Of a DNA stretch of 64,000 nt, positions 37,575 to 57,154 are shown piece after piece. The DNA lies in assembly GCA_002347045.1 (NCBI GenBank), contig DDWV01000001.1, positions 487,201 to 551,200 of the forward strand, given 5' to 3'. Made by a program: the position numbers and the translations under genes. The notes below the pieces were generated by a model, which ran no database searches, was not told the DNA's origin, and saw only the letters and a list, made by a program, of their open reading frames with translations. Source of the stretch: Candidatus Collierbacteria bacterium UBA2277 (GTDB lineage Bacteria; Patescibacteriota; Microgenomatia; UBA1400; MFAQ01). The stretch's first letter is position 1, and every line of letters begins with the position of its first letter.

Positions 37575-38966
37575 ATGGCTACCAAAAAAGAAATGATAAA
37601 GAGTGTTTTGCCTGTTTTTTTTGGCTTACTAGTGATTGTAATGGTGGTGGTTGCGATACCAACGGCGATAAAATTAACAAGTAAGGCTTCTGGGGAACCA
37701 GCTAATCTTGTTTTTAATTATGAAGGAGTTTTGGGGAAGGTCCCAACACCTTGGAGAAACTTGGCACAAGGAGGAGAGGAGCCAAAAGATATGCTTTCGG
37801 GAATAGTCCCAGAAATAAGAGCGCTAAGGCCTGAGTACATACGAATTGACCATATATATGATGCCTTCAATGTAGTTTCCGGAAGTAGCGGAAACCTATC
37901 ATTTGACTGGAGTGGTCTGGATAAGGCGGTCGACTCTATATTGGCAACGGGAGCAAAACCATTTTTATCACTTTCGTATATGCCTTCAGTGATTGCCAAG
38001 GGTGACATAGTGTCTCGACCGAACAACTGGAATGACTGGGGGGTTGTAGTTAGTGAGACTATAAAGCACTATAGCGGAGTAAAAGAACGGAATATCAATA
38101 ATGTAATTTATGAAGTTTGGAATGAGCCAGACCTGTTTGGAAGTTATAAAACATATGGAGACAAAAACTATCTTGATATGTACTTGGTGTCAGCAAGAGC
38201 AGCGGCAAGAGTGAGCGGAGTGAATTCTTTTGAGATAGGCGGACCGGCAACGACGGCTTTGTATCAAAACTGGCTTGAGCGCCTTATTAAGTATGTTGAC
38301 CAGAATAATTTAAGGATGGATTTTGTGAGCTGGCATAGATACACAACGGATTTAGAGCAATTTGAAAAAGATGTGGCTCAGGCAAGGTCTTGGGCAGAGA
38401 ATATTCCGGCACTGATTAACTTGAAGTACTACGTGACAGAGTGGGGCTTTGATAGTGAAAACAATAAAGGCTATGACGAAAGATTCGGAGCGATACACAC
38501 GATAGCGGCATCAAGAACGATGATGGGAGCAATCGATAAAGCATTTGTTTTTGAGATAAAAGATGGACCTGGAGCAGAAAAATACTGGGGTAGATGGGGT
38601 TTGCTAACCAATGAAAAGTATGGAGTACCAGAAAAAAAGCCAAGATATAAAGCTTTAGAGTTTTTGAATACTTTAGGACCACACAGGATGAGCGTATCGG
38701 GAGAAGGGTCTTGGGTAAAAAGCATAGCTTCAGCAGATGACAATGGAGACTTAAAAATACTAGTGGTAAATTATGATCCAAAAGGAGTTCATGTTGAGTC
38801 TGTACCAATGACATTCGAGAACTTGCCAAGTGGAAATTTTAAGATTACAAGGCAGGACTTTATGGGAGGAAGCAGAGTTGTAAATGTGGCAACAACAAGC
38901 GCGGTGTGGAAAACAAATGAATACTTTAGTGCAAACTCGGCAGCGATGTTTACGGTGAATTTTTGA
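37575..38966 (+). CDS. Membrane-anchored clan GH-A glycoside hydrolase (GH39/GH5-like TIM barrel)
   Basis: 463 aa with an N-terminal TM anchor. The acid/base motif is EVWNEPDL and the nucleophile motif is YYVTEWGF, the two catalytic-Glu signatures of GH39-type retaining glycosidases. Confidence 0.6.
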   Translation: MATKKEMIKSVLPVFFGLLVIVMVVVAIPTAIKLTSKASGEPANLVFNYEGVLGKVPTPWRNLAQGGEEPKDMLSGIVPEIRALRPEYIRIDHIYDAFNVVSGSSGNLSFDWSGLDKAVDSILATGAKPFLSLSYMPSVIAKGDIVSRPNNWNDWGVVVSETIKHYSGVKERNINNVIYEVWNEPDLFGSYKTYGDKNYLDMYLVSARAAARVSGVNSFEIGGPATTALYQNWLERLIKYVDQNNLRMDFVSWHRYTTDLEQFEKDVAQARSWAENIPALINLKYYVTEWGFDSENNKGYDERFGAIHTIAASRTMMGAIDKAFVFEIKDGPGAEKYWGRWGLLTNEKYGVPEKKPRYKALEFLNTLGPHRMSVSGEGSWVKSIASADDNGDLKILVVNYDPKGVHVESVPMTFENLPSGNFKITRQDFMGGSRVVNVATTSAVWKTNEYFSANSAAMFTVNF

Positions 38967-42419: not shown

Positions 42420-42481
42420 TGAAGTGATTTTAATTCAAGAGAGTGACTTGCGCTAGGTGTAGCTCGTGGTAAAATTAGCGC

Positions 42482-42724
42482 ATGCCAATAACAAAGTCAG
42501 CAATAAAGAAACAAAGATCGGATAAAAAGAAGGCCGGTTTTAACAAATCAACAAAAACTAAAGCAAAAACCGCGATCGATGCTTTTAAGTTGTCACTCTC
42601 AAAAGAGAGCTTGATGAAAGCTTTTTCAATGGTAGATAAAGCTGCCAAAAAAGGTGTGATAAAAAAAGGTAAGGCAAACAGAATCAAATCTCGTTTGTCA
42701 AAAAAAGTTTCTTCCAAAGCGTAA
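42482..42724 (+). CDS. rpsT: 30S ribosomal protein S20
   Basis: 80 aa, basic and all-helical. MPITKSAIKKQRSDKKKAGFNKSTKTKAKTAIDAF matches the S20 N-terminus. Confidence 0.85.
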   Translation: MPITKSAIKKQRSDKKKAGFNKSTKTKAKTAIDAFKLSLSKESLMKAFSMVDKAAKKGVIKKGKANRIKSRLSKKVSSKA

Positions 42725-42746
42725 GTATTTTTGATACACTGAAAGT

Positions 42747-43292
42747 GTGGCTACTAAGCAAGGTGTTTCTAGTATAAATTTATTACCTAAAGATAGTTTT
42801 GAGTTCTCTACGACAGGGAAGCTTTTAAAGTGGATAACAACAGCGGGACGAGTTTTGGTAGTTTTAACTGAGTTTGTAGTTCTCTTGGCCTTTGGTTCAA
42901 GATTTTATTTTGATAAGAAGCTTGACGATCTTGGAGAGGTGATAGTTCAGAAACAAGCTCAGGTTATGACTTACTCCGAGATAGAGACAGATATTCGAAA
43001 GATTTTGGCAAAACAACGACAAGTTGAGATATACGAAAAATCTGGTTTGGGTTTCTCAGAAAAAATAAACAGTTTAACTAATATCCTACCGGCAGGAACT
43101 TCTCTGGACAGCTTTAATCTGAACAATGGATTGCTAGTAATAGAAGGAAAGGCTCAGTCGGAGTATGGATTTGCTCAGTTTTTAACCGGGATAAAAAAAA
43201 TGCCTGGAGTAGCAATGATAAACATGAAAGACACAAACTTTGATCAGACAACTGGTGGAGTGAAGTTTAATATTCAAATTAGCTATAAATAA
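42747..43292 (+). CDS. PilN-like type IV pilus assembly protein
   Basis: 181 aa with an N-terminal INLLPKD motif, the hallmark PilN INLLP, followed by a TM helix and a periplasmic domain. Confidence 0.6.
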   Translation: MATKQGVSSINLLPKDSFEFSTTGKLLKWITTAGRVLVVLTEFVVLLAFGSRFYFDKKLDDLGEVIVQKQAQVMTYSEIETDIRKILAKQRQVEIYEKSGLGFSEKINSLTNILPAGTSLDSFNLNNGLLVIEGKAQSEYGFAQFLTGIKKMPGVAMINMKDTNFDQTTGGVKFNIQISYK

Positions 43293-43954
43293 TGGCCAAC
43301 TTATTAAGCAACGAAAAATACGCGCTTTACTATCAGAAGATTGGACTTTTGTATAAAAAGCCTGAGATTCGAGCTTCTTTGGAGGTTATATTGTCGGTTT
43401 TTACCGTGATTGTACTAGTGTTTGCGGCTATCAGACCAACGCTAATAAATATTACGTCTTTGCAGAAAAAAATTACCGACCAGGAAGCAGTCAACAAAAA
43501 ATTGGATAATAAAATGGCCCAGCTGATAAATGCCCAGACACAGCTTGAGGTAAACAGGGATAGTCTATATCTATATGATAGTGCAGTACCGGATGGTTTT
43601 TCTTATGGAGATAGCGCAAAAAGAGTTGAGTATTTGGCAAGAAGAAATAATCTGCAAATTGAGTCTCTGACTTTTTCGGGGGTAACTTTGCAAGATGGTG
43701 GAAAGGTAAACGGAGACTGGCTATCTAAGATTAGCGTCCCTTCCACTGACAGCATAATTCAAAACAAAGTGACTTTTACGATAAAGGGAAACCCTGAAGG
43801 CACAATCAATTTTTTGAAACAAATTGAGTCTATGGATCAGCTGGCTATCCTGGGCAGTGCTTCGCTAACAAAGCAAGTTGGCCAGTCGAGACAAAACGAT
43901 TCTTTGAGAGCATCTGGAACACTGACCTTTTATTTTTACTCAACAAGACAATGA
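43292..43954 (+). CDS. PilO-like inner-membrane pilus assembly protein
   Basis: 220 aa with a short cytoplasmic N-terminus, a TM helix, a coiled coil (QKKITDQEAVNKKLDNKMAQLINAQTQLE) and a periplasmic domain. Its start codon overlaps the stop codon of pilN. Confidence 0.45.
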   Translation: MANLLSNEKYALYYQKIGLLYKKPEIRASLEVILSVFTVIVLVFAAIRPTLINITSLQKKITDQEAVNKKLDNKMAQLINAQTQLEVNRDSLYLYDSAVPDGFSYGDSAKRVEYLARRNNLQIESLTFSGVTLQDGGKVNGDWLSKISVPSTDSIIQNKVTFTIKGNPEGTINFLKQIESMDQLAILGSASLTKQVGQSRQNDSLRASGTLTFYFYSTRQ

Positions 43955-44265
43955 AACCACAAAGAACAATATCTTCTTATGTCTTGTTGGTAGGAATCAT
44001 GGGATTGTCTATAATGGGTGGAGTAGTGGCTTATCAGATTTATTCTGCGGCAGTAAAAAGTCAAGTAACCATGGAACAGAGTGCTGCGATTAAACCTATT
44101 GATGGACAGATAGATACTACTGTTATTGAGAGCCTTAGAAATAGGACTGTTATAAATGAGTCAGAGATGCAACAATTATTGACAGAGGTGCTAGAGTCGG
44201 AGCCAGTTGTGGCGACGGAGTCTAGTGCTGTTGAGGCTACAGCTTCAGCAACTATAGAGCCATAA
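43951..44265 (+). CDS. Small bitopic membrane protein with an acidic Ala/Thr-rich C-terminus
   Basis: 104 aa with an N-terminal TM helix. It is translationally coupled to both flanking genes through 4-nt and 1-nt overlaps. Confidence 0.35.
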   Translation: MKPQRTISSYVLLVGIMGLSIMGGVVAYQIYSAAVKSQVTMEQSAAIKPIDGQIDTTVIESLRNRTVINESEMQQLLTEVLESEPVVATESSAVEATASATIEP

Positions 44266-45608
44266 TGAAAAAACAAGGCCTAATGGCCAAGAAAATACCA
44301 ACGGTTTTTGGAATACTGATTCTTTTAGGCGGTCTTGTGGCTGGTGTGATTTTGGTAAACAACCGACAAGGGCTAATCACAAAAGCTGGGCCTACTGAGT
44401 CTCCTAAAAATGTAAAGATTTCTAATCTTGGATCGAACTCTTTTACCGTGAGCTGGACTACCGACACTCCCGTGACTGGTTACTTGAAGTACTCAGAAAA
44501 TCCAGCAAAAATTACCTCACCGGCAGGAGATATCCGTGACCAGATATCTGGAACATCCCAAGGATACACAAACCACTACATAACGGTGACGGGTTTGAGC
44601 CCTGAGAAGACGGTGTATTTTATGATTGGATCCGGATCCCAGATGTATGACGATAATGGAAACCCTTTTGAAGTACGGACAACTAATCAGGTAATAGCAC
44701 CTCCGGAAAATGTGATAACCGGAAAAATTGTTGGAGCAGACGGTACTCCAATAAACGGAGCGATAGTGTATGTAGAAGTTGAGGGCGGTAAAACACTGTC
44801 AGCAATGACGAATACTACTGGAGCTTGGAGACTAAACTTGGCTTCTTCGCGAGACAGTAAAGGGGCGGTGCTTACATATGACGCAAACACTTCACTTGTG
44901 TCCATCTTTGTGCAAGCAGGTATCTCTGGAACAGCAACAGCGGTAACAAATACTAGTAAAACTAAACCTGTGCCAGATATCACCTTGGGAAAAAATCAAA
45001 GTTTTGTAGATTCTACGATCACATCTGAGAGCGCATCTAGTGCCGTGGCTGCAGGAAAAAGCGGAAGTTTCGAAAGCATTGCTGAAGAAGCTGCTCCAGT
45101 AGGAGGTATTGCAGCTACTGAGTCTGGGTCTATGATTGTAATGAATCCTGCTATCAATGGCGAGATTATTGCTACTAGTACTCCTGAGTTTCGAGGTAAA
45201 ACCGCCCCTGGAATTACTATAAAGATCTCTGTTCACTCGCCGATTGAGCTTACACAAGTAATCAAATCGGATAAGAATGGGGACTGGACCTGGACGCCTC
45301 CACAAAAACTAGATCCTGGCTTGCACACGCTAACACTTGAGTTTACTGACGAGAATAACGTTTTCCAGAAAATTGTAAGGACATTTACTGTTTTGGCAGC
45401 TGAGGATACTTTGGGGATGCCTGCTTTTGTAGCTACTCCTTCGTCTGAGATAGCAACTCCATCCGCAATCCCGACTGAAAGCATGCCAGCAACGGTGTCG
45501 AGTGAGTTGGCCGATGCGGGTGGTTTTTCAACGACAATTCTCCTCGGAGTTGCAGGTATTATAATGCTGATATTTGGCAAGGTGTACAAAAACAAGTGGA
45601 AAGATTGA
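44265..45608 (+). CDS. Cell-surface protein with FN3-like and carboxypeptidase-regulatory-like beta-sandwich domains and a C-terminal sorting-signal-like anchor
   Basis: 447 aa with an N-terminal signal/TM segment, NSFTVSWTTDTPVTGYLKYS (FN3-like), and GKIVGADGTPINGAIVYVEV (CarbopepD_reg-like). The C-terminus reads LADAG, then a 19-residue hydrophobic stretch, then KVYKNKWKD. Confidence 0.55.
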   Translation: MKKQGLMAKKIPTVFGILILLGGLVAGVILVNNRQGLITKAGPTESPKNVKISNLGSNSFTVSWTTDTPVTGYLKYSENPAKITSPAGDIRDQISGTSQGYTNHYITVTGLSPEKTVYFMIGSGSQMYDDNGNPFEVRTTNQVIAPPENVITGKIVGADGTPINGAIVYVEVEGGKTLSAMTNTTGAWRLNLASSRDSKGAVLTYDANTSLVSIFVQAGISGTATAVTNTSKTKPVPDITLGKNQSFVDSTITSESASSAVAAGKSGSFESIAEEAAPVGGIAATESGSMIVMNPAINGEIIATSTPEFRGKTAPGITIKISVHSPIELTQVIKSDKNGDWTWTPPQKLDPGLHTLTLEFTDENNVFQKIVRTFTVLAAEDTLGMPAFVATPSSEIATPSAIPTESMPATVSSELADAGGFSTTILLGVAGIIMLIFGKVYKNKWKD

Positions 45609-45674
45609 CGAATGACAAAGAGTTCTTTATAGTGTACTTAAGTAATACTTTATTGGAACGAAAATATATATAGA

Positions 45675-47450
45675 ATGGACGACCAAAATCAAACCAATCA
45701 ATCGTTAGGTCAGAGTACTGTGCCAACAAATGATCCACAGTTTCCTCCAATAGAGTCAGTAGTCTTAAATCAACCCGAAGATATTACACCGTCGGCCACT
45801 CTGCCTCAAAATCCTGCGTTTCCAGAGATGGCGAGTACTGAGCCCGTCACCATGAATGAGTCTTTAGTAACTGAACCTGTGCCGTCTGGACAAGGAAGTG
45901 TTGATTCTATTTCTGAGATGACGCCAGGAACCACTGATGTTTCAACGCCATCTTTACAGACTCCTCCCGTGACAATGGAGTCAAGCGAACCTGCAGAGCC
46001 ACCAATGCCAGAGGCTAAGAAAAAAAGTAAGGTTTTTCCAATAATCGGTGGAGTTGCGGCACTGCTTCTTGTGGTAGGTGTGGCGGGTGCGGCTTACTAT
46101 GTATCAAATCAGCTTTCTACCAGACAAGCAGTGGCGCCTACGGCACCAGAGAGTGAGCCACAGGCGTATGTACTTGAAGGAGGTGGGTCGGGGCAAGTTA
46201 CCATCAAACCGCCGGCGGGAACAACAATTAACATCGTAAGACCGGTGGCTACTGACGATGATGAACCAGCGCCAAAAAAGACACCGACACCAACAAAAGC
46301 GCCAACTCCTAGAAATATACCTGAGGGTACGGGAACTGATGGTTTATACGTGGGAGTTACCTTCAATCCGGGTGATACTGTTTCAGTAGGTGGAACTGTT
46401 TATAAAAAAGATGCTCCTCTGAAAGTTAACGATAAAGGTGTGCTTGAATGTGCGGAAGAAGGATATTATTTATGTACCATTGCTGGAAGCAACGAGTGTT
46501 GCAAGATTGGGAGTCAAACAACTACTGCTGCGATTGGAGGAGATGGGGGAACTTCAGGGGGAAGTACCAGCACAAACTGCATAACTTGGAATGGTTATAT
46601 AGCCAATCCAACACAAGAACAGGAAAGGCAAGTAATATGTAATCCAAATAAAGATAAGTTTAATACGGTTACTTTTTCAGAAGCTTGCGTGGCAAGAGTT
46701 TACTACAACACAGATATTGCAGGCTCTGTAATAGCACTAACAAAAGACGGAGTGGCAACTCCCATGACAAGAATTGACGATAAAAAATGGGACGTAAATG
46801 TAACTCCCGGCACTTATACTATTACTGCTAAACTGGGAAATGAAGACAAAAATGCTATGGGATTTAGGGTACCTAATAGTTCTGGGATTTGTCAGATGTT
46901 TGGAGCTCCATATAATGTAAGTTCATTTTTGCAAGCTTCAACGTTGAAAGCTTTGGGGATAGACTCTGTCACTCAGGTAGATCGCCCTGTGCAGTGCTGG
47001 GGTGACATGATCAAGGGGGCAGACGGGAATACCCGAGGCGAGCTGAACTCTAATTATGACTTTAATGATTTTAGTGTTGTAATTGGTTGCAAGGACGCGG
47101 AGACATCTGTACCAGGTTACTGCGCATTGCTAAGAATCTATAAAAAAGTAAATGGTGTGTATAGTCCGACCCATATGACGACTGCTGATCTTCAAAATAT
47201 GGTGGTTGGGGATACGTACAGACTTACGGTGACAAACAACTTAGAGCTTCTCCCGACTCGTTTTAGAGTGACGATTTCTGGAGTAGTTGGTGGTTGGATG
47301 GATGGTACCTTTAACGCAACAAACAAAAAAATCGTAGAGTACAACGACTTGGTGATTACCTCTCCTGGAACGTATAAGTTTGAAGCTCAGGTTGTGCCAA
47401 TTCCAATGACTGGTGTGAATCAAAAGACAATTGAATATACTGGACAATAA
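45675..47450 (+). CDS. Type-II membrane protein with a disordered Pro/Thr/Glu-rich cytoplasmic N-tail and a Cys-rich extracytoplasmic domain
   Basis: 591 aa with a ~118-aa low-complexity N-tail, KKKSK plus a TM helix, a conserved QLSTRQAVAPTAPESEPQ motif, and about 14 Cys in the ectodomain. Confidence 0.5.
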   Translation: MDDQNQTNQSLGQSTVPTNDPQFPPIESVVLNQPEDITPSATLPQNPAFPEMASTEPVTMNESLVTEPVPSGQGSVDSISEMTPGTTDVSTPSLQTPPVTMESSEPAEPPMPEAKKKSKVFPIIGGVAALLLVVGVAGAAYYVSNQLSTRQAVAPTAPESEPQAYVLEGGGSGQVTIKPPAGTTINIVRPVATDDDEPAPKKTPTPTKAPTPRNIPEGTGTDGLYVGVTFNPGDTVSVGGTVYKKDAPLKVNDKGVLECAEEGYYLCTIAGSNECCKIGSQTTTAAIGGDGGTSGGSTSTNCITWNGYIANPTQEQERQVICNPNKDKFNTVTFSEACVARVYYNTDIAGSVIALTKDGVATPMTRIDDKKWDVNVTPGTYTITAKLGNEDKNAMGFRVPNSSGICQMFGAPYNVSSFLQASTLKALGIDSVTQVDRPVQCWGDMIKGADGNTRGELNSNYDFNDFSVVIGCKDAETSVPGYCALLRIYKKVNGVYSPTHMTTADLQNMVVGDTYRLTVTNNLELLPTRFRVTISGVVGGWMDGTFNATNKKIVEYNDLVITSPGTYKFEAQVVPIPMTGVNQKTIEYTGQ

Positions 47451-47460
47451 CTGAAATAAA

Positions 47461-48129
47461 ATGAAAAATAAAAATAAAAAAATACTCGCAATAATTTTAA
47501 TTTTAGTTATTTTAATATTAGGAGGAGCATCTATTTATATTGCAACACAGCTCTCGACAAGAGAGACTGTAGCTCCAACAGCTCCTGAAAGTAAACCAGC
47601 CGCCTCAGAACCAGATAGCCTTTGGGAAGGATCTGACGCTTGTGTGGTGGATGCCGTGGCTAAAGAGGGGTGTTCGTATAAATATTATTGTCTTACAGAT
47701 TCGTATACTTGTGTGGCCACGAATGGGCTGTATACAAAAACAACCCCTTATACATGGTGTGATGGACCGATCGCTCCACCTCCAACATGTGAAGAAAATT
47801 TGAAAACATACGATACAGGACCCAACACTGGAATGTGTTATGCAACACAAGATAGTTGTGATGCTGCCTGCATAAAACCAGTAATTACTAAAGCACCTAC
47901 CGAAGCCCCGACAGCGGCTCCGACTGCAGTTCCTACAATTATTGTAACTGTAGCACCAACGGCAGCCCCAACTGTGATCGTAACAGCAGCGACAGCAGTG
48001 CCAACGACAGTAGTAACAGTAGCCGCACCAACTGCTTTGCCTGAAGCAGGTATTTTTGATCTTCCAGGAATTGCTGCTTTTGCCGGAGGACTTATACTGG
48101 CTGTGGTTGGAATTCTACTAGCGCTGTAG
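47461..48129 (+). CDS. Small Cys-rich surface protein with an N-terminal TM anchor, a PT/VT-repeat linker and a C-terminal LPEAG-plus-hydrophobic tail
   Basis: 222 aa with an N-terminal TM helix, then QLSTRETVAPTAPESKPA, paralogous to the 45675 gene. It has 10 Cys in about 80 aa and an (A/V)PT repeat linker. The C-terminus is ALPEAGIFDLPGIAAFAGGLILAVVGILLAL. Confidence 0.5.
   Translation: MKNKNKKILAIILILVILILGGASIYIATQLSTRETVAPTAPESKPAASEPDSLWEGSDACVVDAVAKEGCSYKYYCLTDSYTCVATNGLYTKTTPYTWCDGPIAPPPTCEENLKTYDTGPNTGMCYATQDSCDAACIKPVITKAPTEAPTAAPTAVPTIIVTVAPTAAPTVIVTAATAVPTTVVTVAAPTALPEAGIFDLPGIAAFAGGLILAVVGILLAL
47890..48040 (+). repeat. Imperfect short tandem repeats encoding an Ala/Pro/Thr/Val-rich linker
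   Basis: Reiterated ccaac[gt]g..gc.gc / gtaac.gtagc units encode APTEAPTAAPTAVPTIIVTVAPTAAPTVIVTAATAVPTTVVTVAAPTA. Confidence 0.6.
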
Positions 48130-48131
48130 AC

Positions 48132-49382
48132 ATGAAGATAGCCATAATTGGAGGTGGCTTTACCGGTCTTAGTTGTGCATATTCCCTATTGGAGCGAAAA
48201 ATTGACGTAGCTTTGTTTGAGAACGATGAGTGTTTGGGGGGATTGGCAGGCGGGTTTCGACAGGCTGATTGGAAATGGGACCTGGAGTTTTTTTATCATC
48301 ATATTTTTACAAACGACAGAGATATTATGAGGTTGGCAGAGAAATCTGACTGGAAAGTGAAAATTTCTAGTCCTTTGACAACTAGCTTTGTAAACGGAGT
48401 AGAGACACAACTTGACTCACCGTCGTCTTTGATGCGGTTTAACAAGATGAGTATTGGGGGAAGATTGAGGATGGGAGCTGGACTGGCTGTGTTGAAGTTT
48501 ATCCCCGATGGGTTATTTTTAGAAAAGTATTTGGTAGTGAAGTTTTTACCTAAGCTAATTGGAGAGGAAGGATACAAACTTGTATGGGAAAAACTTTTGA
48601 AAGCAAAGTTTGGACCTTTTTATGACAGAGTAAACATGGCATGGTTCTGGACTCGAGTAGCAAAACGAACAAAAAAATTGGGCTATTTTGACGGAGGATT
48701 TGTGAAGCTAGCGGAAATGATCGGAGAAAAGATCGAGAGAATGGGAGGGCGCCTAAACATGAATACTAATATAGAAAAGATTGAGGCGATCGGAGAAAAG
48801 TGGAGTGTAGATGGGCAGATATTTGATGGGGTAGTGATTACGAATCCTGCCCCAGTTGCAAAAAAAATGCTGGGGGGTATAAAGATTGATTTACATAAAA
48901 TTGATTATCTTTGGGGGCAAACTTTGATAATAGAACTTGAGAAAAAACTTATTAAGGGATACTGGATGAATATTTTAGAGAATGACTGGCCGTTTTTGGT
49001 GGCCGTGGAACACACAAATATGATTGACAAGTCCAGATACGGAAACAAAGAAATACTATATCTGGGAAATTACCTTGCGGATAATAATAGTCAGCTGAGT
49101 ATGAGTAAGAATGAGATAATCAAGCTTTATACACCTTTTCTTAAAAAAATTAATCCTAGATTTGAAAGGAAATGGATAAAAGACAGTAGTCTATTTCGAA
49201 AACCATTTGCCCAACCAGTGTTTCCTGTTAATTATTCAGACCAGTTATTAAAGCCAAAAACGAAGTATAAGGGGCTCTATTTTGCGAACATGAGCATGGT
49301 GTACCCATTTGATCGTGGAACAAACTACGCAGTTAGAATGGGAGAAGATGTAGCTAAACAGATACAATTAGATTTAGAATAA
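48132..49382 (+). CDS. FAD-dependent oxidoreductase, UDP-galactopyranose mutase-like or amine-oxidase-like
   Basis: A Rossmann N-terminus IAIIGGGFTGL, a GGLAGGF motif, and YHHIFTNDRDIM, which resembles the Glf motif HIFHTNDKYIW. At 416 aa it is close to the UGM-family length. Confidence 0.5.
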   Translation: MKIAIIGGGFTGLSCAYSLLERKIDVALFENDECLGGLAGGFRQADWKWDLEFFYHHIFTNDRDIMRLAEKSDWKVKISSPLTTSFVNGVETQLDSPSSLMRFNKMSIGGRLRMGAGLAVLKFIPDGLFLEKYLVVKFLPKLIGEEGYKLVWEKLLKAKFGPFYDRVNMAWFWTRVAKRTKKLGYFDGGFVKLAEMIGEKIERMGGRLNMNTNIEKIEAIGEKWSVDGQIFDGVVITNPAPVAKKMLGGIKIDLHKIDYLWGQTLIIELEKKLIKGYWMNILENDWPFLVAVEHTNMIDKSRYGNKEILYLGNYLADNNSQLSMSKNEIIKLYTPFLKKINPRFERKWIKDSSLFRKPFAQPVFPVNYSDQLLKPKTKYKGLYFANMSMVYPFDRGTNYAVRMGEDVAKQIQLDLE

Positions 49383-49389
49383 AATATCT

Positions 49390-51354
49390 ATGTTTTTTAC
49401 TGACCTATCAATTGTTTTTAGAACCTACTTGATAAGCTTAGTAATTCAACTGCTAACTTGGCCAGTAACTAAGAAAATTTTTGGAAAATTACCTGATGGA
49501 GGTTGGGCCTTGGGAAGAGTGTTTACAAGCTTGTTTGCGGCCGTGGTTATATGGCAGTTGAGCTATCTAGGTCTTTCTTCGAACAACAGTAGTAGCATAT
49601 TTGCTTTGATGACTGTTTTTGGACTAGCTGGACTTTGGCAACTGTATGTCGACGGAGTCAAAAAATATGCGGTTACTCGTTCTATGGCAAAGATTATTGC
49701 CATTGAAGAATATCTTTTTTTAATAGGACTCGGATTAACTGCAATTATTCGTGGACATGCTCCAGAGTTAAACTCACTGGAGAAGTTTATGGATTTTGGA
49801 TTTGTAAAACAGTACTTAGTGTCTCCTTCTCTTCCGGCGATGGATATGTGGCAAGCAGGAAAAAGTATCAACTATTACTCCTTTGGTCATTTTTGGACTA
49901 GCACTTTAATCCGTATCTGGGGAGTTGAGCCGAGTGTGGGATACAACTTGATGTTGGCTTTTATTTTTGGAACATCGATGAGTCTAGTATTTATTTTGTG
50001 CTATACACTGATGGGCAAAAAAAGCTCGCGAGCCTTAACTTTTGGGAGTTTGATAGGGTCAATGTCGGTAATGATAGCCGGAAACAGCCATACCATTTGG
50101 TATCTATTGAAAAACAAGGGCCTGCTAGACTACTGGTATGCAGACGCAACACGATTTATTGCTTTCACAATTCATGAGTTCCCAAGCTATAGTTTTGTGG
50201 TCTCTGATCTTCATGGCCATGTACTTGATTTACCGGTAGTTTTGTCTTTTTTGGTTCTTTTGGTCTTGTGGTTTAGTGAGAGAAAGAAAATTTATGAGGT
50301 ACTTATGGGAGTGTTGTTTGGAGTAATGATGATGACAAACACTTGGGATGTAGCAATTTTTGGATTGGTATTGGTAGTAATGGCGGTGTTAATGCTGTTT
50401 GAGAATCCCAGAGAGATTAAGGCCTTACTATCAATGGCCATGACAATGATAGTGACCGTGTTTTTGGTGACAATGCCATGGTGGTTGTCTTTCCATGCCA
50501 TATCAGATGGAATAGGACTTGTAAAAGAGAGGTCTCCTTTTTGGCAACTTCTTGTGTTGTGGAGCGGAGGAGTAGTAATAAGCGTTTTAGGTTTTGTGAT
50601 GGGAAAGGGTGAAAAAAATAAACTTTTGATTAGAACACTGGCACTTTGCTCAGTTTTCCTAATTGCGATACCTGAGTTTGTTTACGCGAGGGACATTTAC
50701 CCAGACTATCCAAGAGCCAATACTATGTTTAAGCTAACTTACCAGTCGTTTGTAATGATAGGCGTGTTAGCTGGATTTGCTTGGGGAAAGTTGCTGGATA
50801 AAGATAAAAAAATGTTTGTGGGGATGCGGATTTTAGGACTGTTTGTTTTGCTATATATATTTGTAGGGACGATGATTTTTCCGGTTAAAGCATTCCCCTC
50901 TTACTACAAATCATTTGCTAATTATAAAGGACTTAGTGGAGAAAAATGGATGGTAGATACAATGCCCGAATATTATCATGCAGCAAAATATCTAGACAAA
51001 AATCGAGACGGGAAGAATTTGGTAGAAGCTGTGGGAAACAGTTATACCCTATTTAACGCAGTGTCAGTGTTTTCCGGCGTACCGACAGTTCAAGGATGGA
51101 GAGTGCATGAGTGGTTGTGGCGAGGGGGGTACGACACAGTGCTTGAAAGACAAGATGATGTAATTGAAATATACCAAGGTCAAAGCGTAGAGAAGGCGCA
51201 AAAATTAATTAAGAAATATAATGTTGGCTGGATATTGGTTGGACAAAATGAGACTGTTTCTTACAAAATTAATGAGGAAAAGCTGTGGCAAATTGGTGAA
51301 AAAGTCTGGCAAGATGGCAATACTTATATAATAAAAGTAGAACTACCCTACTGA
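49390..51354 (+). CDS. DUF2298-like polytopic membrane protein (putative GT-C-fold glycosyltransferase)
   Basis: 654 aa with at least 12 TM helices in the N-terminal 500 aa and a soluble C-terminal domain. The architecture is typical of DUF2298 / ArnT-PMT-like proteins common in CPR and archaea. Confidence 0.5.
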   Translation: MFFTDLSIVFRTYLISLVIQLLTWPVTKKIFGKLPDGGWALGRVFTSLFAAVVIWQLSYLGLSSNNSSSIFALMTVFGLAGLWQLYVDGVKKYAVTRSMAKIIAIEEYLFLIGLGLTAIIRGHAPELNSLEKFMDFGFVKQYLVSPSLPAMDMWQAGKSINYYSFGHFWTSTLIRIWGVEPSVGYNLMLAFIFGTSMSLVFILCYTLMGKKSSRALTFGSLIGSMSVMIAGNSHTIWYLLKNKGLLDYWYADATRFIAFTIHEFPSYSFVVSDLHGHVLDLPVVLSFLVLLVLWFSERKKIYEVLMGVLFGVMMMTNTWDVAIFGLVLVVMAVLMLFENPREIKALLSMAMTMIVTVFLVTMPWWLSFHAISDGIGLVKERSPFWQLLVLWSGGVVISVLGFVMGKGEKNKLLIRTLALCSVFLIAIPEFVYARDIYPDYPRANTMFKLTYQSFVMIGVLAGFAWGKLLDKDKKMFVGMRILGLFVLLYIFVGTMIFPVKAFPSYYKSFANYKGLSGEKWMVDTMPEYYHAAKYLDKNRDGKNLVEAVGNSYTLFNAVSVFSGVPTVQGWRVHEWLWRGGYDTVLERQDDVIEIYQGQSVEKAQKLIKKYNVGWILVGQNETVSYKINEEKLWQIGEKVWQDGNTYIIKVELPY

Positions 51355-52418
51355 GAACCATTGAGACGGTTGCTCAAATACTTCTTTAAGGCGTCCCAAC
51401 TATTATCTTTGGGGATAAGCACCCACTCACCTTTATATTTATATGTGGGAGGATTGTATAGTATCGCAACCCCGTTTTCGTCTGGGAGAGTGGAAAGAGT
51501 GATTGATCTCATCTGACTGTTTTGAGTGTCTAGAGCTATTTTGGCCAGAGTTGGATATAGACTCTGACTAAGGTTGGTATCGAGATTTTTGTCCAAAATT
51601 GTAAAAAACTGGTCAAGCTTTTCTTTGTTGAGGAGAAAAGCTGGTGTAAGCATTTTTTGTTTTAGAGCCGAGATAATTTGTTGTTGTCTGCGGGACCTGG
51701 CAAAGTCAGTACCTTCATCTCCTATTGAGTGACGCGATCTAACAAACTTTAGGGCAGTGTCACCGTTCATGTGAGCTGACCCTGTAGCAAAAACAAGTGT
51801 TTCGTATCGGCTAGACACAGGTATAGCGTTTTCTTTGCCTGGAAGAGGAAAATTTGGATCGACAAATCCAGGATTAACGTCTATATCCACCCCTCCTATG
51901 AGGTCGATAGTTTCTTTAAAAATAGTGAAGTTTATGACTGCAGTGTAATGAATGGGAAGACCTAAGTCTTCTAAAATTGCACCTTGAGCCATTTTTATGC
52001 CACCCCCTGGGCTGGCCTTTTCTCCGTAGTGATAAGCAGTATTAATTTTGGCTTGGAGTGAAGGAACCCAAAGGTCTCGAGGAATACTTATCAAAGCTGG
52101 AGTTTTTGAGTTGTGATTGTAAGAAAGAACAATAACTGTGTCTGAAAGATTTGGAGAGTCTGTACCTTCGCCACGTATACCGAGTAATAAAAAGTTTGTG
52201 GTGCCACTAGTGTTGTCGAGATTCTCAACGGGAGTGCCAAAAAAACTAAGAAGGTCTTGAGGCTTTAAATTGAGGCCAGAGAGTATCTCGAGTCCCTTTG
52301 CACCTGCAATTCCTAATATACTGAGAAAAAACAAAACGAGAATGGCCACAAGATGAGTTTTTATGAATGCGGCAGTACGAATAAAAAGACGGCGTGGTCT
52401 GATGTGACTTATTTTCAT
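51348..52418 (-). CDS. LytR-CpsA-Psr (LCP) family cell-wall glycopolymer ligase
   Basis: 356 aa with an N-terminal TM helix and the LCP core motif NFLLLGIRGEG...DTVIVLSYN...ALISIPRDLWV. Its 3' end overlaps DUF2298 convergently by 7 nt. Confidence 0.8.
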   Translation of the reverse strand: MKISHIRPRRLFIRTAAFIKTHLVAILVLFFLSILGIAGAKGLEILSGLNLKPQDLLSFFGTPVENLDNTSGTTNFLLLGIRGEGTDSPNLSDTVIVLSYNHNSKTPALISIPRDLWVPSLQAKINTAYHYGEKASPGGGIKMAQGAILEDLGLPIHYTAVINFTIFKETIDLIGGVDIDVNPGFVDPNFPLPGKENAIPVSSRYETLVFATGSAHMNGDTALKFVRSRHSIGDEGTDFARSRRQQQIISALKQKMLTPAFLLNKEKLDQFFTILDKNLDTNLSQSLYPTLAKIALDTQNSQMRSITLSTLPDENGVAILYNPPTYKYKGEWVLIPKDNSWDALKKYLSNRLNGSQ

Positions 52419-52422
52419 TGTG

Positions 52423-53115
52423 TTATGAAATGCTGTTGATGATTTCGGTAAAAAGAGTTGGCTCTAAGCTGTCTGTTCCAACTAATACTCCATCGATGCG
52501 TCCTTGATCAACAAACATATTAACATTGTCGGCTGTAACTGAACCGCCATAAAGAATCGGGGCTTGGTTGTCTGTAAGAAAGCCAATTTGGTTGGTGACA
52601 TGATTTGTTTCGACAGGATCCATTGCTGTTCCAGTACCGATTGCAGATATTGGTTCGTAAACAAAAAAACATCGAGAAACATCGATGTTTTTTTGGAATA
52701 GCTCTTTGATTTGTTCATCTATGTAAGGTATATCAAGACAAACGATAGGAGTAATGGAGTTTTCAAGTAGAAGGCGAGTTTTCTCGGCCACCATTTCACA
52801 GGTTTCGTTGAACTCACGTCGTCGTTCAGAGTGACCGACAATGCAGTAACTAACAAGCTCGCTAAGCATGTTCGCGGTGACTTCACCGGAGTGCTTTCCA
52901 GGAGGTAGATGAGAGACGTTTTGGGCACCAGTGATTATGGGAATGTTTAGGTCGGATAATTTGTGATTGAAGCCTGAGATATCAGTGAAGGGCAAGCAGA
53001 GAATCACAGTGAGATCCTTGTGAAAATTAGGCTTGATTGATTGAATGCCATCAATCCATATCAGAGATTCGGTGAGGTTTTGATTGCTTTTCCAGTTGCC
53101 AATTATGTATTTCAT
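52423..53115 (-). CDS. tpiA: Triosephosphate isomerase
   Basis: The GNWKSN, GHSERR, YEPISAIGTG and YGGSV catalytic-loop motifs. Confidence 0.9.
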   Translation of the reverse strand: MKYIIGNWKSNQNLTESLIWIDGIQSIKPNFHKDLTVILCLPFTDISGFNHKLSDLNIPIITGAQNVSHLPPGKHSGEVTANMLSELVSYCIVGHSERRREFNETCEMVAEKTRLLLENSITPIVCLDIPYIDEQIKELFQKNIDVSRCFFVYEPISAIGTGTAMDPVETNHVTNQIGFLTDNQAPILYGGSVTADNVNMFVDQGRIDGVLVGTDSLEPTLFTEIINSIS

Positions 53116-53139
53116 TCTGTGGGTTAATTATATGCCATA

Positions 53140-55074
53140 TTGAATTACAATGGATTGGTTATGAGTGAGTTATTAAAAAATCTAAACGAAAAACAAAAAG
53201 AGGCAGTCACCTATGGAGAAGGACCTTTGCTAGTGCTGGCTGGTGCAGGATCGGGAAAAACAAGAGTGCTAACACACAGAGCTGCCCACCTAATCGCAGA
53301 GATGGGTGTCGATCCCCATAAAATTGCTCTATTAACGTTTACAAACAAGGCAGCAGGAGAGATGAGAGATAGGGTTGAGAAGTTAGAAGGTAAAGGTTGT
53401 GTTTTGGGTTTTGCGGGAACATTTCACACTTTCTGTGCAAAACTTCTGAGAACTCACGGGATAAATGTTGGAGTGAAGCCAAATTTTGTAATTTTTGATA
53501 GTAGTGACTCAGAAACGGCGATGAAGAAAGTATTGAAAGAACTTGATATTGACCCAAAAGAGTTTAAACCCGCGATGTTTTTGGCAGTAATTGGAAAAAT
53601 GAAAAATGATCTGATTGGTATTTCTGAAGCGGAGGCGGAGGTGTCGGATATGTTTCGAAGAACTGTGGTTCGAGTGTGGAAGGCTTATCAGAAGAAGCTC
53701 GAGACTAACAATGGGGTAGATTTTGATGACTTACTAGTAAAGACTGTTTCCCTGCTCAGTATTGATAGAGTTCGACAAGAGATAAATACAAGACTTGAGT
53801 GGATTCTTGTGGATGAGTATCAAGACACAAATAAAGCCCAGTTTGAACTCACAAAACTCTTGGCTGGAGAGAAACACAACATTACAGCTGTAGGTGACGC
53901 AGCTCAAGCAATTTACTCGTTTCGGGGAGCAGATTATAAAAACTTAGTAATGTTTAACACAGAGTATCCAGAAACAAAAACCATAAGCTTGCCGATGAAT
54001 TATCGAAGTACCCAAAATATATTGGATACAGCCTTTGGTGTAATAAGCCACAACACGACCCATCCAGTTATCAAATTAGAGACTAATTGCTTAGTTGGAG
54101 AAAAGGTAGATTTTTTTGAAGCAGTAGATGAGAGAGATGAGGCAAAGTATGTAGTAGAAACAGCCAGAAAAGCAAGTGGCTTTGGTGAAGTGGCAATACT
54201 TTATCGAACAAACTCTCAGTCTAGAGCTTTTGAGGACGAACTAATGCGTAGAGATATACCTTATAAACTAATTGGCGGGCTAAGATTTTATAATCGAGCT
54301 GAAGTAAAGGACTTAATTGCCTACCTAAGACTAGTTAATAATCCCGCAGAAGAAATAAGCAGAATAAGAATTGAAAAAATCGGCAAGAGAAGGGCGAGTA
54401 AGTTTTATGAATGGAGTGATCGTCTTCCGAGTGGAAAAGATCAAAGCTCCCCGGGACAGTTATTGGAAGAGATCATAAATATAGTTGGGTTTTTGGAGAG
54501 ATTTGACGAAAGAGACGAAGATGATTTAGCCCGAATTGAAAACATCAATGAGCTTTTGGCCGTAGCGTCTGAGTATAAGAATGTTGAGGAGTTTTTGGAA
54601 AGTGCCGCTTTATCTGAGTCGGAGATTAAGCAACATAGATCAAATGCAAAAATTTCATTGATGACTGTACATGCGGCCAAGGGCTTGGAGTTTGAAATTG
54701 TTTTTGCTGTAGGACTCGAAGAGGGATTGTTCCCTCACTCCAGATCTTTGATGTCAGGAGCAAAGGAAGAAGTTGAAGAAGAAAGAAGATTGATGTACGT
54801 TGCAATGACACGAGCTAAGGAGAAACTCACACTGTCTTGGGCGAGAAGCCGGTTGGTATTTGGCGGTCGACACACTTCTATCCCATCTAGATTCCTAGCT
54901 GAGATTCCTGAGAATCTTTTGAAAAAAACAGGCGGGGCAAAGGAAATGGAAAAGAAAATGACGAAAGCGAGTTCAAGTTCTGATGAGTTTGTAGAAAAGA
55001 AAAGAATTATTGTTCAAGACTGGGAAATTGAAGCAGAAACGAAGGATGACTTTGCAGAGATTGACAATTGGTAA
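53140..55074 (+). CDS. uvrD: UvrD/PcrA-family ATP-dependent DNA helicase
   Basis: LNEKQKEAV...GPLLVLAGAGSGKTRVLTHR (Walker A), VDEYQDTN, and the remaining SF1 motifs. An alternative start at 53161 (MSELLKNL) fits homologs better. Confidence 0.85.
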   Translation: MNYNGLVMSELLKNLNEKQKEAVTYGEGPLLVLAGAGSGKTRVLTHRAAHLIAEMGVDPHKIALLTFTNKAAGEMRDRVEKLEGKGCVLGFAGTFHTFCAKLLRTHGINVGVKPNFVIFDSSDSETAMKKVLKELDIDPKEFKPAMFLAVIGKMKNDLIGISEAEAEVSDMFRRTVVRVWKAYQKKLETNNGVDFDDLLVKTVSLLSIDRVRQEINTRLEWILVDEYQDTNKAQFELTKLLAGEKHNITAVGDAAQAIYSFRGADYKNLVMFNTEYPETKTISLPMNYRSTQNILDTAFGVISHNTTHPVIKLETNCLVGEKVDFFEAVDERDEAKYVVETARKASGFGEVAILYRTNSQSRAFEDELMRRDIPYKLIGGLRFYNRAEVKDLIAYLRLVNNPAEEISRIRIEKIGKRRASKFYEWSDRLPSGKDQSSPGQLLEEIINIVGFLERFDERDEDDLARIENINELLAVASEYKNVEEFLESAALSESEIKQHRSNAKISLMTVHAAKGLEFEIVFAVGLEEGLFPHSRSLMSGAKEEVEEERRLMYVAMTRAKEKLTLSWARSRLVFGGRHTSIPSRFLAEIPENLLKKTGGAKEMEKKMTKASSSSDEFVEKKRIIVQDWEIEAETKDDFAEIDNW

Positions 55075-55313
55075 AAAACCCGGCCATTGAGACCGGGAAG
55101 GAATAAAGCTAACTGCAAAAATATTTTTTGAAGAATTTGAGGATCCTTTTTAAAACAGAGTTTAGAGAAAATTCTATTTTATTGGCGTATTGGCCTTGCC
55201 TGTTTAAATACTTTTCGTATTCTTCGTCTCTGATAACTCCTCCTTGTGATAAGTTTGGCTTGATTTTATTACTTAAGCGTGACTATTGTCAACAAAACAG
55301 GTTAAAATAAACT

Positions 55314-56333
55314 GTGATCGAAACTGTAAAAGAGAGCCAAAAAAAAGAATACAACAACTTAGCAAAACACCCTTTGCAGTCTTGGGAGTGGGGAGAGTTT
55401 CGTAAGCAAACTGGAGTGATGGTTTCGCGTTTTATACAAACTAAAAAAAATAACTCAAAAGAAGTATTTCAGGTTACTTGGCACACAGTTCCAAAAACAG
55501 GTCTAAAGATTGGGTACTGTCCAAAGTCATCGGTCCCAGATAATGAAGTTTTGGCAGCTGTACTTAAAGAGGGAAAGATAAGAAAGGCCATCTTTGTTAA
55601 GTTTGAACCAAATGAAAAAGTGAGTGTCGAAAATAATAAGCGGTTGGAAAACGTTTCTAAAAAGTTTAATTGGGTGAAGGGAAAACCTTTGTTTACAAAG
55701 TATTCTTTTCAGCTAGACATTTCAAAGAATGAAGAAGAACTGTTGGCGAATATGCACCAGAAAACAAGGTACAACTTACGACTGGCTGAAAAGAAAGGGG
55801 TAAAAATTGTAGAAGATAATAGCTTTGAGGGATTTGAAGAGTACTGGAAACTAATGGAGGAAACGACTAAGAGGCAAGGATTTTATGCCCACACAAAAGG
55901 CTATCACAAAAAAATGTGGAAGGAGATGACTAAGTCTGGAATGGGTCACTTGTTTAAAGCAGTTTACGAAGGAAAAACACTGACTACCTGGATGATTTTT
56001 TTATTAAACAATATCGTTTATTATCCATATGGAGCCTCAAGTAATGAAAATCGTGAAGTAATGGCGAATAATTTAATGATGTGGGAGGTGATCAATTTTG
56101 GAAAAAGACAGAAGTGTGTTTTGTTTGATATGTGGGGAAGCATGGGACCTGAGCCAGATCAAAAAGACCCTTGGTATGGATTCCATAAGTTTAAACAGGG
56201 GTATGGAGCTGAGTTGGTGGAGTTTATAGGTAGTTATGATTTGGTTGTGTCACCTAGAATGTATATGGCTTATCAGCTAGTCGATATAGTTAGGTGGTTT
56301 GTCTTAAAGTTATCGGCGAAAGTGAGAAGTTGA
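55314..56333 (+). CDS. FemAB-family peptidoglycan interpeptide-bridge aminoacyltransferase
   Basis: 339 aa with RYNLRLAEKKGV and the YYPYGASS region typical of FemX/FemA/MurM. It has a GTG start. Confidence 0.72.
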   Translation: MIETVKESQKKEYNNLAKHPLQSWEWGEFRKQTGVMVSRFIQTKKNNSKEVFQVTWHTVPKTGLKIGYCPKSSVPDNEVLAAVLKEGKIRKAIFVKFEPNEKVSVENNKRLENVSKKFNWVKGKPLFTKYSFQLDISKNEEELLANMHQKTRYNLRLAEKKGVKIVEDNSFEGFEEYWKLMEETTKRQGFYAHTKGYHKKMWKEMTKSGMGHLFKAVYEGKTLTTWMIFLLNNIVYYPYGASSNENREVMANNLMMWEVINFGKRQKCVLFDMWGSMGPEPDQKDPWYGFHKFKQGYGAELVEFIGSYDLVVSPRMYMAYQLVDIVRWFVLKLSAKVRS

Positions 56334-57154
56334 TGGAAGATATACGACAAGACCCTGCATGGGGCGGACATCTAAAGCATAAGGGGTGGAAGATAGACTG
56401 GGTAAAGTCGTCTGATGGCCGACATAAAATACAGGTTTCTATTCTACGGCTTGGATGGTGGCCATTTTCGATGATGAAGATACAAAGGTCAAACTTTGAT
56501 CCAGACTTTAATGATTTAAAGAGATTAAAAAGAAAATACTGGGTAGCTAACTCAATAATTGAGCCAATTCGGGTTCAAAATATGGAGTCTTTTCGAAAGG
56601 CTGGATATCATCTAACCAGATTCCCATACTTAGCGATGAGTTCTTATGTTAATGACCTTAGTAAGAGCGAAAAAGAACTTTGGAGTGGCTTGTCTGACAA
56701 TGCCAAGAGACTGATAAAGAAGAATGCTAACGCAAAAATAATTGAGATTAGTCCAGATAAGTTTTGTGAGTTATGGAAAAAATCTAGCAAAATTTGGATA
56801 ATGAAGGTAGATGAGGTTGCTAATTTACAAAAATCTTTTAAAGGTAAAGTTCGACTGGTAGTAAGTAAGGTTGGATATGAGTACCACTCTGGACTGATGG
56901 TAATTTATTCAAAAGATACGGCTAATTATTATCAGACATGGACAAGTGAGGCAGGAAGAAAATCGGGGGTTCACTACAAACTTGTGTGGGAGGAAATGAA
57001 AAAGGCTAAGCAAATGGGAATGAAATACTTTGACTTTGAGGGAATTTTTGACCCTCGTTGGCCACAAAAAAAATGGATTGGTTTTACTGACTTTAAAAGA
57101 CGTTTCGGCGGAGAGCTGGTTCGTTTCCCTGGTGGATTTTTTCGTTGGCTATAG
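56333..57154 (+). CDS. Second FemAB-family aminoacyltransferase
   Basis: About 273 aa from MEDIRQDPAWGGH, a paralog of the upstream gene. Its ATG overlaps the upstream TGA (TGATG). Confidence 0.62.
   Translation: MEDIRQDPAWGGHLKHKGWKIDWVKSSDGRHKIQVSILRLGWWPFSMMKIQRSNFDPDFNDLKRLKRKYWVANSIIEPIRVQNMESFRKAGYHLTRFPYLAMSSYVNDLSKSEKELWSGLSDNAKRLIKKNANAKIIEISPDKFCELWKKSSKIWIMKVDEVANLQKSFKGKVRLVVSKVGYEYHSGLMVIYSKDTANYYQTWTSEAGRKSGVHYKLVWEEMKKAKQMGMKYFDFEGIFDPRWPQKKWIGFTDFKRRFGGELVRFPGGFFRWL

Follow-up and report, generated by a model that had tools for sequence, protein, structure and literature searches.

Three-component extracytoplasmic glycosylation systems combine a polyprenyl-phosphate-sugar synthase, of either the glycosyltransferase family 2 (GT2) or the UbiA type, with a flippase and a membrane glycosyltransferase of the C fold class (GT-C). 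Examples are GtrABC, C. youngae ORF15/14/12 (GT136), and Arn (PMC11127046, PMC11194591). The pentofuranose system reported by Kelly et al. in 2024 consists of a UbiA protein, a phosphatase, and a GT-C, with or without an epimerase (PMC11127046), and Bacillus versions carry several GT-Cs together with FAD oxidoreductases and NAD(P) epimerases (commentary, PMC11194591). In Pseudomonas aeruginosa, the GT-C TfpW, whose periplasmic C-terminal domain is large, functions in pilin arabinosylation from a lipid-derived pentofuranose (bioRxiv 10.1101/2020.04.19.049825). The mycobacterial arabinan pathway likewise belongs among the closest systems; it comprises the UbiA protein Rv3806c, the PAP2 protein Rv3807c, DprE1/DprE2, the GT-Cs Aft and Emb, and Lcp1. 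Here, we compare with these systems a pair of adjacent genes, encoding a flavoprotein and a DUF2298 membrane protein, in a 64,000-nucleotide stretch of the Candidatus Collierbacteria bacterium UBA2277 genome (contig DDWV01000001.1, positions 487,201 to 551,200). We call this whole stretch the window.

An earlier, sequence-only reading had joined these two genes and a convergent gene of the LytR-CpsA-Psr (LCP) family into a minimal cell-wall glycopolymer pathway headed by the UDP-galactopyranose mutase (UGM) Glf. The three open reading frames (ORFs), their lengths, the 7-nt gap between ORF1 and ORF2 (49383–49389), the 7 nt shared by the convergent stop codons of ORF2 and ORF3 (51348–51354), and the flavoprotein motif YHHIFTNDRDIM are all present as that reading described them (Table 1). 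Our interpretation differs. On balance we lean, by a modest degree, toward the view that the flavoprotein and the DUF2298 protein form a functional pair, a reduced version of a three-component-type, lipid-carrier-dependent extracytoplasmic glycosylation system.

The locus resembles the three-component systems in two respects: it encodes a GT-C with a putative acceptor-binding C-terminal domain, and related loci hold a Dpm1-like GT2 or a UbiA phosphoribosyltransferase (with PAP2), a flippase-like module, and optional short-chain dehydrogenase/reductase (SDR) epimerases. It departs from them in others. The GT-C is a DUF2298 protein, not GT136, GtrC, or ArnT; a flavoprotein of the superfamily that includes protoporphyrinogen oxidase (PPOX) and UGM recurs as an additional component; in related loci, the candidate for the flippase is an MprF-type LPG_synthase_TM module, not MATE or GtrA; and the window holds the GT-C and the flavoprotein only, rather than the whole set encoded together. 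By architecture, the locus may also parallel the TfpW system, with its GT-C bearing a large C-terminal domain and with pilN/pilO-like and surface-protein genes directly upstream. Unlike in the TfpW system, the upstream proteins are not recognizable pilins, and DprE1/E2 genes are absent.

The flavoprotein

The flavoprotein matches the Pfam family Amino_oxidase (PF01593) over its full length (5e-15) and the NCBIfam family NF005560/PRK07233 at 359.6 bits, against a cutoff of 252, over residues 1–412 of 416. NF005560 still carries the name "hypothetical protein." Among 40 homologs, G7 and G9 of the dinucleotide-binding motif are invariant and G12 is nearly so, and the helical domain contains an invariant stretch rich in Trp, Arg, and Lys, AWFWTRVAKRTKK. 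An AlphaFold model made from the alignment of these 40 homologs has a pLDDT of 92. Foldseek searches with the model returned protoporphyrinogen oxidases and rice phytoene desaturase (PDS) first (TM score ~0.8), followed by monoamine and amino-acid oxidases; UGM was not among the best 50 matches. This comparison, which the sequence-only reading had itself named as a check on the protein's identity, thus favors PPOX and PDS. PDS and PPOX are structurally nearer to the flavoprotein than is UGM, a slightly more distant relative. Similarly, in profile searches of PDB sequences, UGM matches residues 2–66 only, whereas PPOX and PDS each align in two stretches and with better scores. The nearest named NCBIfam relative is HpnE, at 45.7 bits versus a cutoff of 283, and the PPOX family model scores 26 bits versus a cutoff of 98. 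Unlike PPOX, PDS, and HpnE, the flavoprotein occurs in a glycosylation context, not one of tetrapyrrole, carotenoid, or hopanoid synthesis. It has no FAD_binding_4 match, and its fold is of the amine-oxidase/Rossmann type, unlike that of the VAO-type DprE1.

The first alternative to be weighed is the pathway of the sequence-only reading. Specifically, the flavoprotein would be a Glf that makes UDP-Galf, DUF2298 would polymerize or transfer Galf outside the membrane, and LCP would ligate the product to peptidoglycan, in a minimal arabinogalactan-like pathway. An hhalign comparison with E. coli Glf (from MG1655) gives a weak match (60% probability, E 8e-5) that places YHHIFTNDRDIM on the Glf motif HIFHTNDKYIW and pairs R175/Y185 of the flavoprotein with R170/Y181 of Glf, along with an EH motif. 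The conserved substrate-binding residues of UGM include an essential Arg (R278 in E. coli, R280 in K. pneumoniae), a mobile-loop Arg, and uridine-binding Tyr, Thr, and Trp residues. In the alignment, Glf R278 falls on V290, itself invariant in the flavoprotein family; Glf Y151/T152 correspond to L155/L156 and W156 to F160; and the C-terminal third of the flavoprotein cannot be aligned. No match to the GLF domain (PF03275) was found in Pfam at E <= 0.01, and TIGR00031 is not among the NCBIfam matches listed (best 25 of 36). We therefore rejected the flavoprotein as a Glf, given the lack of a GLF domain, the replacement of the essential Arg by Val, the loss of the uridine-binding residues, and the closer structural likeness to PDS and PPOX. 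The resemblance of YHHIFTNDRDIM to Glf lies at the level of the superfamily and is not diagnostic of UGM. The flavoprotein is a member of its own uncharacterized family within the same flavoprotein superfamily as UGM. Because the UGM residues are missing, classical UDP-Galp mutase activity is the least likely of the activities considered, and the Glf-to-GT-C logic, along with the minimal pathway built on it, is wrong or unsupported; we regard that pathway as very improbable.

A second alternative is that the enzyme acts on the isoprenoid carrier instead of the sugar. It might, for example, saturate or desaturate an isoprene unit of polyprenyl phosphate, yielding a dolichol-like carrier preferred by STT3- or PMT-like GT-Cs. 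The best structural relatives, PDS and PPOX, are monotopic in the membrane and have hydrophobic substrates, the nearest named NCBIfam relative, HpnE, modifies isoprenoids, and AWFWTRVAKRTKK has a composition that would suit attachment to a membrane surface. Moreover, the GT-Cs associated with the flavoprotein are of archaeal and eukaryotic types (STT3-like and PMT_2). The genomic neighborhood argues otherwise: isoprenoid-synthesis genes do not recur near the flavoprotein, and the GT2, UDP-sugar dehydrogenase, and SDR genes that do lie near it point to the sugar moiety. Our literature search also turned up no PDS-like polyprenol reductase that could serve as a precedent. We judge carrier modification unlikely.

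The DUF2298 protein

ORF2 belongs to DUF2298 (PF10060, 5e-83; TIGR03662, 398 bits), a family of 7,074 clusters at 50% identity, with 3,006 at E <= 1e-30. We found no characterization of DUF2298, TIGR03662, or PF10060 in the literature. The AlphaFold model (pLDDT 90, pTM 0.92) has a C-terminal globular domain and ~14 membrane helices, compared with the 12 counted in the sequence-only reading, which had the length right at 654 aa. The fold is that of a multi-pass membrane GT-C, as that reading had proposed, and the C-terminal globular domain has the core fold of oligosaccharyltransferases (OSTs). Neither the full-length protein nor the C-terminal domain alone matched anything in sequence and profile searches of PDB sequences.

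Within the first long extracytoplasmic loop, E131, K132, and D135 of LEKFMDFGF do not vary among 40 close homologs or among 41 distant representatives. D135 is also kept in a family of unnamed membrane proteins of ~550 aa, here called M553, whose aWSDFg aligns to KFMDFG of DUF2298; D135 is thus a candidate catalytic Asp. Further invariant motifs, LPxxDMW, INYY, TIHEFPxYS, DLHGH, MTNTWD, and RANTMFK, lie in predicted external loops. TIHE (residues 260–263) was considered as a counterpart of the OST "TIXE" motif and rejected as coincidence: it sits in another loop, and M553 does not conserve it. A family-profile comparison aligns M553 with DUF2298 over 459 columns (hhalign, 98% probability, E 2e-13); single sequences gave a probability of 3.6%, and the family-level result was kept. 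The two families have in common the first-loop Asp and a C-terminal GW..W..GYD..R motif, and their profiles identify M553 as a DUF2298 paralog.

Several features separate DUF2298 from STT3, AglB, and PglB. It has no Pfam match to STT3 (PF02516) and no sequence similarity to OSTs of solved structure, it lacks WWDYG and instead has the invariant motif GWRVHEWLWRGG, and it possesses three additional N-terminal helices. Its genomic partners, in turn, indicate monosaccharide-phosphate-lipid donors, not lipid-diphosphate-oligosaccharides. Two unusual domain arrangements were encountered in the family. A Shapirobacteria DUF2298 protein (L082, 15874–18213) has a LysM module inserted in its C-terminal domain, a single case among ~1,400 proteins and hence weak evidence. 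Likewise a single case is the library representative P0415, in which an N-terminal PAP2 phosphatase is fused to DUF2298.

Gene associations in relatives

Gene order was compared in 80 DUF2298-centered loci from GTDB species genomes, with close relatives defined by at least 43% identity. In close relatives, the flavoprotein gene adjoins DUF2298 in 35 of 36 loci. UvrD is kept in 32 of the 36, with similar retention of TIM, FemAB, and the surface-protein genes upstream, and the region from pilN through FemAB is collinear. Conservation of the cassette at this distance is plain synteny. An underlying order is kept across many Microgenomates classes: MurJ, pilN-like, pilO-like, a small ORF, a Big_13/fn3 surface protein, the glycosylation genes, DUF2298, (LCP, TIM), UvrD, and two FemAB genes (window 40776–57154; L001–L082). 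Between the surface protein and DUF2298, the number of glycosylation genes ranges from 1 to ~8. Many metagenome-assembled genomes (MAGs) with this typical synteny (L003–L005, L006, L039, L044, L067, and others) are labeled Pseudomonadales/Gammaproteobacteria, Spirochaetia, Omnitrophota, or Bathyarchaeia; these are probably mislabeled or mis-binned records.

In distant relatives, the flavoprotein gene is adjacent to DUF2298 in 1 of 39 loci and elsewhere in the locus in 10. There, DUF2298 is the last gene of a larger glycosylation cluster. The cluster includes a Dpm1/AglJ/PpgS-like GT2, a UbiA protein that matches decaprenyl-phosphate phosphoribosyltransferase (NF008978, 209 bits versus a cutoff of 207), PAP2, an SDR epimerase, a GT4, a methyltransferase, several PMT_2-type GT-Cs, and M553. 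For example, the Shapirobacteria locus L082 reads MurJ-pilN/O-Big_13-UbiA-PMT_2-PMT_2-GT4-PAP2-DUF2298-UvrD-FemAB. Related loci, among them L082, L057, L083, and L086, encode all three parts: the lipid-sugar synthase, the flippase, and the GT-C. A DUF2298-type GT-C follows the flavoprotein in ~40 loci, M553 in distant lineages and DUF2298 in the clade of the window; PMT_2 GT-Cs follow it in three loci and UbiA in one. In two loci from MAGs labeled "Omnitrophota" (L039, 1799–3097; L044, 1943–3238), the slot between GT2 and M553 holds a PRK07208-like flavoprotein (NF005547, 153 bits) and not NF005560, which suggests that the two families are interchangeable in this slot. An apparent 938-aa flavoprotein–GT-C fusion (L074, 1708–4524) was discarded as an artifact, in which masked N positions join two separate ORFs.

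Because these loci had been selected for DUF2298, we also gathered 80 metagenome loci centered on divergent flavoprotein homologs, with GC contents of 27–74%. An LPG_synthase_TM gene (PF03706, 187 bits; an MprF-type flippase module) lies directly upstream of the flavoprotein in 10 loci, a GT2 at position -1 or -2 in seven, and a UDP-glucose/GDP-mannose dehydrogenase (Ugd) after it in four; PMT_2 GT-Cs are frequent. At least 29 of the 57 evaluable loci have a glycosylation-type gene within three genes of the flavoprotein, a lower bound because the hidden Markov models were built from sequences of the Candidate Phyla Radiation (CPR). Two side observations concern these neighbors. The stand-alone LPG_synthase_TM genes upstream of NF005560-like flavoproteins are on 10 unrelated contigs among L083–L162 (e.g., L127, 5955–6965), which suggests that their products are lipid-linked-sugar flippases. 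Second, on a contig of 67% GC (L102, 1–3150), a 1,050-aa fusion of a PMT_2 GT-C with five NHL beta-propeller repeats is encoded two genes upstream of the flavoprotein homolog.

These associations bear on the possibility that there is no functional cassette, that is, that the arrangement reflects the MurJ-to-FemAB synteny block alone and the flavoprotein has an unrelated housekeeping role. The collinearity of pilN through FemAB in close relatives, TIM and UvrD included, is what this possibility predicts; the flavoprotein is missing from the 8 kb around DUF2298 in 28 of the 39 distant loci, and about half of the flavoprotein-centered loci have unrelated neighbors. Against it, the flavoprotein recurs with GT-C, GT2, and flippase genes in unrelated backgrounds across the GC range given above, where the Microgenomates synteny is absent, and the gene spacing is operon-like. 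A requirement for PPOX or carotenoid desaturases is, to our knowledge, not expected in CPR bacteria. We consider the absence of any functional link decidedly improbable.

The gene associations also raise a more specific form of the glycosylation reading, in which the flavoprotein would be a non-homologous analogue of DprE1. Under this sub-case, it would oxidize the 2'-OH of polyprenyl-phosphoribose, an SDR would reduce the product, and the resulting polyprenyl-phospho-arabinofuranose or other pentofuranose would serve as donor for DUF2298 and other GT-Cs. A UbiA gene of the decaprenyl-phosphate phosphoribosyltransferase type and PAP2 stand beside DUF2298 in several Microgenomates, SDR epimerase genes are present in L070, L073, L039, L044, and L059, and no canonical DprE1 or DprE2 was found in the UbiA/SDR Microgenomates clusters. 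The published pentofuranose systems with auxiliary epimerases, and their Bacillus versions with FAD oxidoreductases, offer a precedent (PMC11127046, PMC11194591). One locus, L056, has the order flavoprotein-UbiA-GT-C, but the flavoprotein and UbiA are mostly alternative cluster heads and occur together in only 1 of ~20 informative loci. Most flavoprotein loci, the window included, have neither SDR nor UbiA nearby, and the partner in the metagenome loci is a hexose-type GT2 and not UbiA. In addition, alcohol oxidation is an atypical chemistry for the amine-oxidase/PDS fold. We therefore regard a DprE1 analogue as quite unlikely.

The LCP gene

The convergent ORF3 is a genuine LCP family member, as the sequence-only reading had called it. 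It matches LytR_cpsA_psr (PF03816) at 107.8 bits (cutoff 24.6; 7e-31) and TIGR00350 at 82.2 bits (cutoff 62.3), its translation has a hydrophobic N-terminus, and it falls far under the cutoffs of the specific equivalogs TagU, LytR, and CpsA. The LCP gene adjoins DUF2298 in all 36 close loci and in 7 of 40 distant loci, where UvrD adjoins more often (15 of 40). Thus, even an unrelated helicase keeps its adjacency at least as well as LCP does. Spacing between DUF2298 and LCP in relatives varies from -23 to +299 nt, and the 7-nt convergent overlap therefore has no special meaning. LCP adjacency is ordinary synteny, and LCP is not a demonstrated part of the system; its specific coupling to the pathway, proposed earlier, is wrong or unsupported.

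A proposed function for the pair

We retain one notion of the sequence-only reading, namely that an enzyme making the donor is coupled to a transferase acting at the outer leaflet. From folds, family memberships, conserved motifs, and gene associations across many genomes, all observed directly, we infer the donor type, the flavoenzyme chemistry, and the acceptor. The two genes are predicted to be co-transcribed. The flavoprotein, cytoplasmic or at the membrane surface, would tailor the donor before flipping. Its target would most likely be the sugar of a lipid- or nucleotide-linked precursor, by oxidation/epimerization or by a UGM-like ring change, and less likely the polyprenyl chain. At the outer face of the membrane, DUF2298 would then take the sugar from a polyprenyl-phosphate-linked donor, a step suggested by context, namely the GT2, UbiA, and PAP2 genes of relatives and the PAP2 fusion. 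In this scheme, D135 would probably act as the catalytic base, and acceptor binding would fall to the OST-like C-terminal domain. DUF2298 would hand the sugar to an envelope acceptor, either wall glycan/peptidoglycan or the upstream Pro/Thr-rich surface proteins. A wall acceptor is suggested by the LysM insertion, the LCP neighbor, and the PAP2 link. Protein O-glycosylation, possibly analogous to Pseudomonas TfpW and to streptococcal Pgf (reportedly a protein O-glycosylation system), is suggested by the OST-like domain, the Pro/Thr-rich anchored proteins encoded upstream, and the PMT_2 partners.

Several observations weigh against a functional pair. Direct adjacency of the flavoprotein and DUF2298 is confined to one Collierbacteria-like clade in which the 15-kb region is wholly syntenic, including TIM and UvrD. 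About half of the flavoprotein-centered loci lack a recognizable glycosylation neighbor and have heterogeneous neighbors; among these, neither a recurrent alternative neighbor nor isoprenoid genes were found. Our literature search found no characterized member of the NF005560 or DUF2298 family, and promoter and terminator scans gave results at chance level and were uninformative. Finally, a window-wide homolog scan found no GT2, UbiA, PAP2, SDR, LPG_synthase_TM, or Ugd. With no lipid-sugar synthase or flippase gene in the window, the system is incomplete there, and the donor synthase and flippase would have to be encoded outside it.

Beyond the pair itself, we offer a broader and more tentative proposal, which is possible but rather doubtful. 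In it, NF005560 would be an unrecognized fourth component of three-component systems, from CPR to high-GC bacteria, acting on the polyprenyl-phosphate sugar, for example as a UGM-like pyranose-to-furanose mutase or as an oxidase that is analogous to DprE1 but differs from it in fold. DUF2298, for its part, would be a new GT-C family with an OST-like acceptor-binding domain that decorates the wall or surface proteins of ultra-small bacteria. As far as we found, neither the pairing of this flavoprotein family with three-component glycosylation machinery nor the structural assignment of DUF2298 has been described earlier.

Neighboring genes

Upstream of the cassette lie three surface-protein genes, a PilN-like gene, and MurJ; downstream lie TIM, a UvrD/PcrA helicase, and two FemAB-like genes. 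The translated surface proteins have N-terminal membrane anchors, Pro/Thr-rich linkers, and C-terminal anchor signals, and the 447-aa protein contains Big_13 and fn3 domains (Pfam). At the C-terminus of the 222-aa protein, "LPEAG" precedes a hydrophobic helix, and at that of the 447-aa protein, "LADAG" is followed by a helix and then KNKWKD; both resemble sortase sorting motifs. These Pro/Thr-rich proteins could be wall-anchored glycoproteins and may be regarded as candidate acceptors of glycosylation. Of the wall-related genes that had been described as nearby, MurJ and the FemAB pair are indeed so, and the sortase is distant. The two FemAB-like genes overlap by 40 nt, and the second is far more divergent (PF02388, 29 bits versus 96 bits). 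Farther upstream, a membrane-anchored GH39 glycoside hydrolase (37575–38963, + strand, 92.6 bits) is encoded beside housekeeping genes of this small CPR genome.

Table 1. Positions in the window of the cassette, its motifs, and nearby wall-related genes
Feature	Position	Strand	Size or residues	Basis or remark
Flavoprotein, ORF1	48132–49382	+	416 aa	ORF call
GxGxxG dinucleotide-binding motif (GGGFTG), flavoprotein	48150–48167	+	residues 7–12	translation
Motif YHHIFTNDRDIM, flavoprotein	48294–48329	+	residues 55–66	translation
DUF2298 protein, ORF2	49390–51354	+	654 aa	ORF call
LEKFMDFGF, first long extracytoplasmic loop of DUF2298	49777–49803	+	residues 130–138	conservation
C-terminal globular domain of DUF2298, extracytoplasmic	50905–51351	+	residues ~506–654	oligosaccharyltransferase-like fold
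Invariant GWRVHEWLWRGG, DUF2298 C-terminal domain	51094–51129	+		
LCP protein, ORF3	51348–52418	-	356 aa	ORF call; convergent with DUF2298
Three surface-protein genes	44265–48129	+	447, 591, and 222 aa	translations; directly upstream of flavoprotein, same direction
MurJ	40776–42419	-		family scan
FemAB pair	55314–57154	+		family scan
Sortase	15335–16087			only one in window; ~32 kb from cassette

Significance

The flavoprotein and DUF2298 both come from large families, with DUF2298 alone accounting for ~7,000 clusters at 50% identity. CPR surfaces are almost unstudied, and the GT-C/OST-like assignment of DUF2298 provides a concrete, testable hypothesis for CPR envelope glycosylation. The recurrence of the flavoprotein, across many phyla, next to genes for GT2s, flippases, and GT-Cs likewise provides one. 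If it is true that the flavoenzyme tailors a lipid-linked sugar, it would represent a new class, beside DprE1/E2 and the SDR epimerases, among the enzymes that diversify donors for extracytoplasmic glycosylation, and it would be of interest for glycoengineering.

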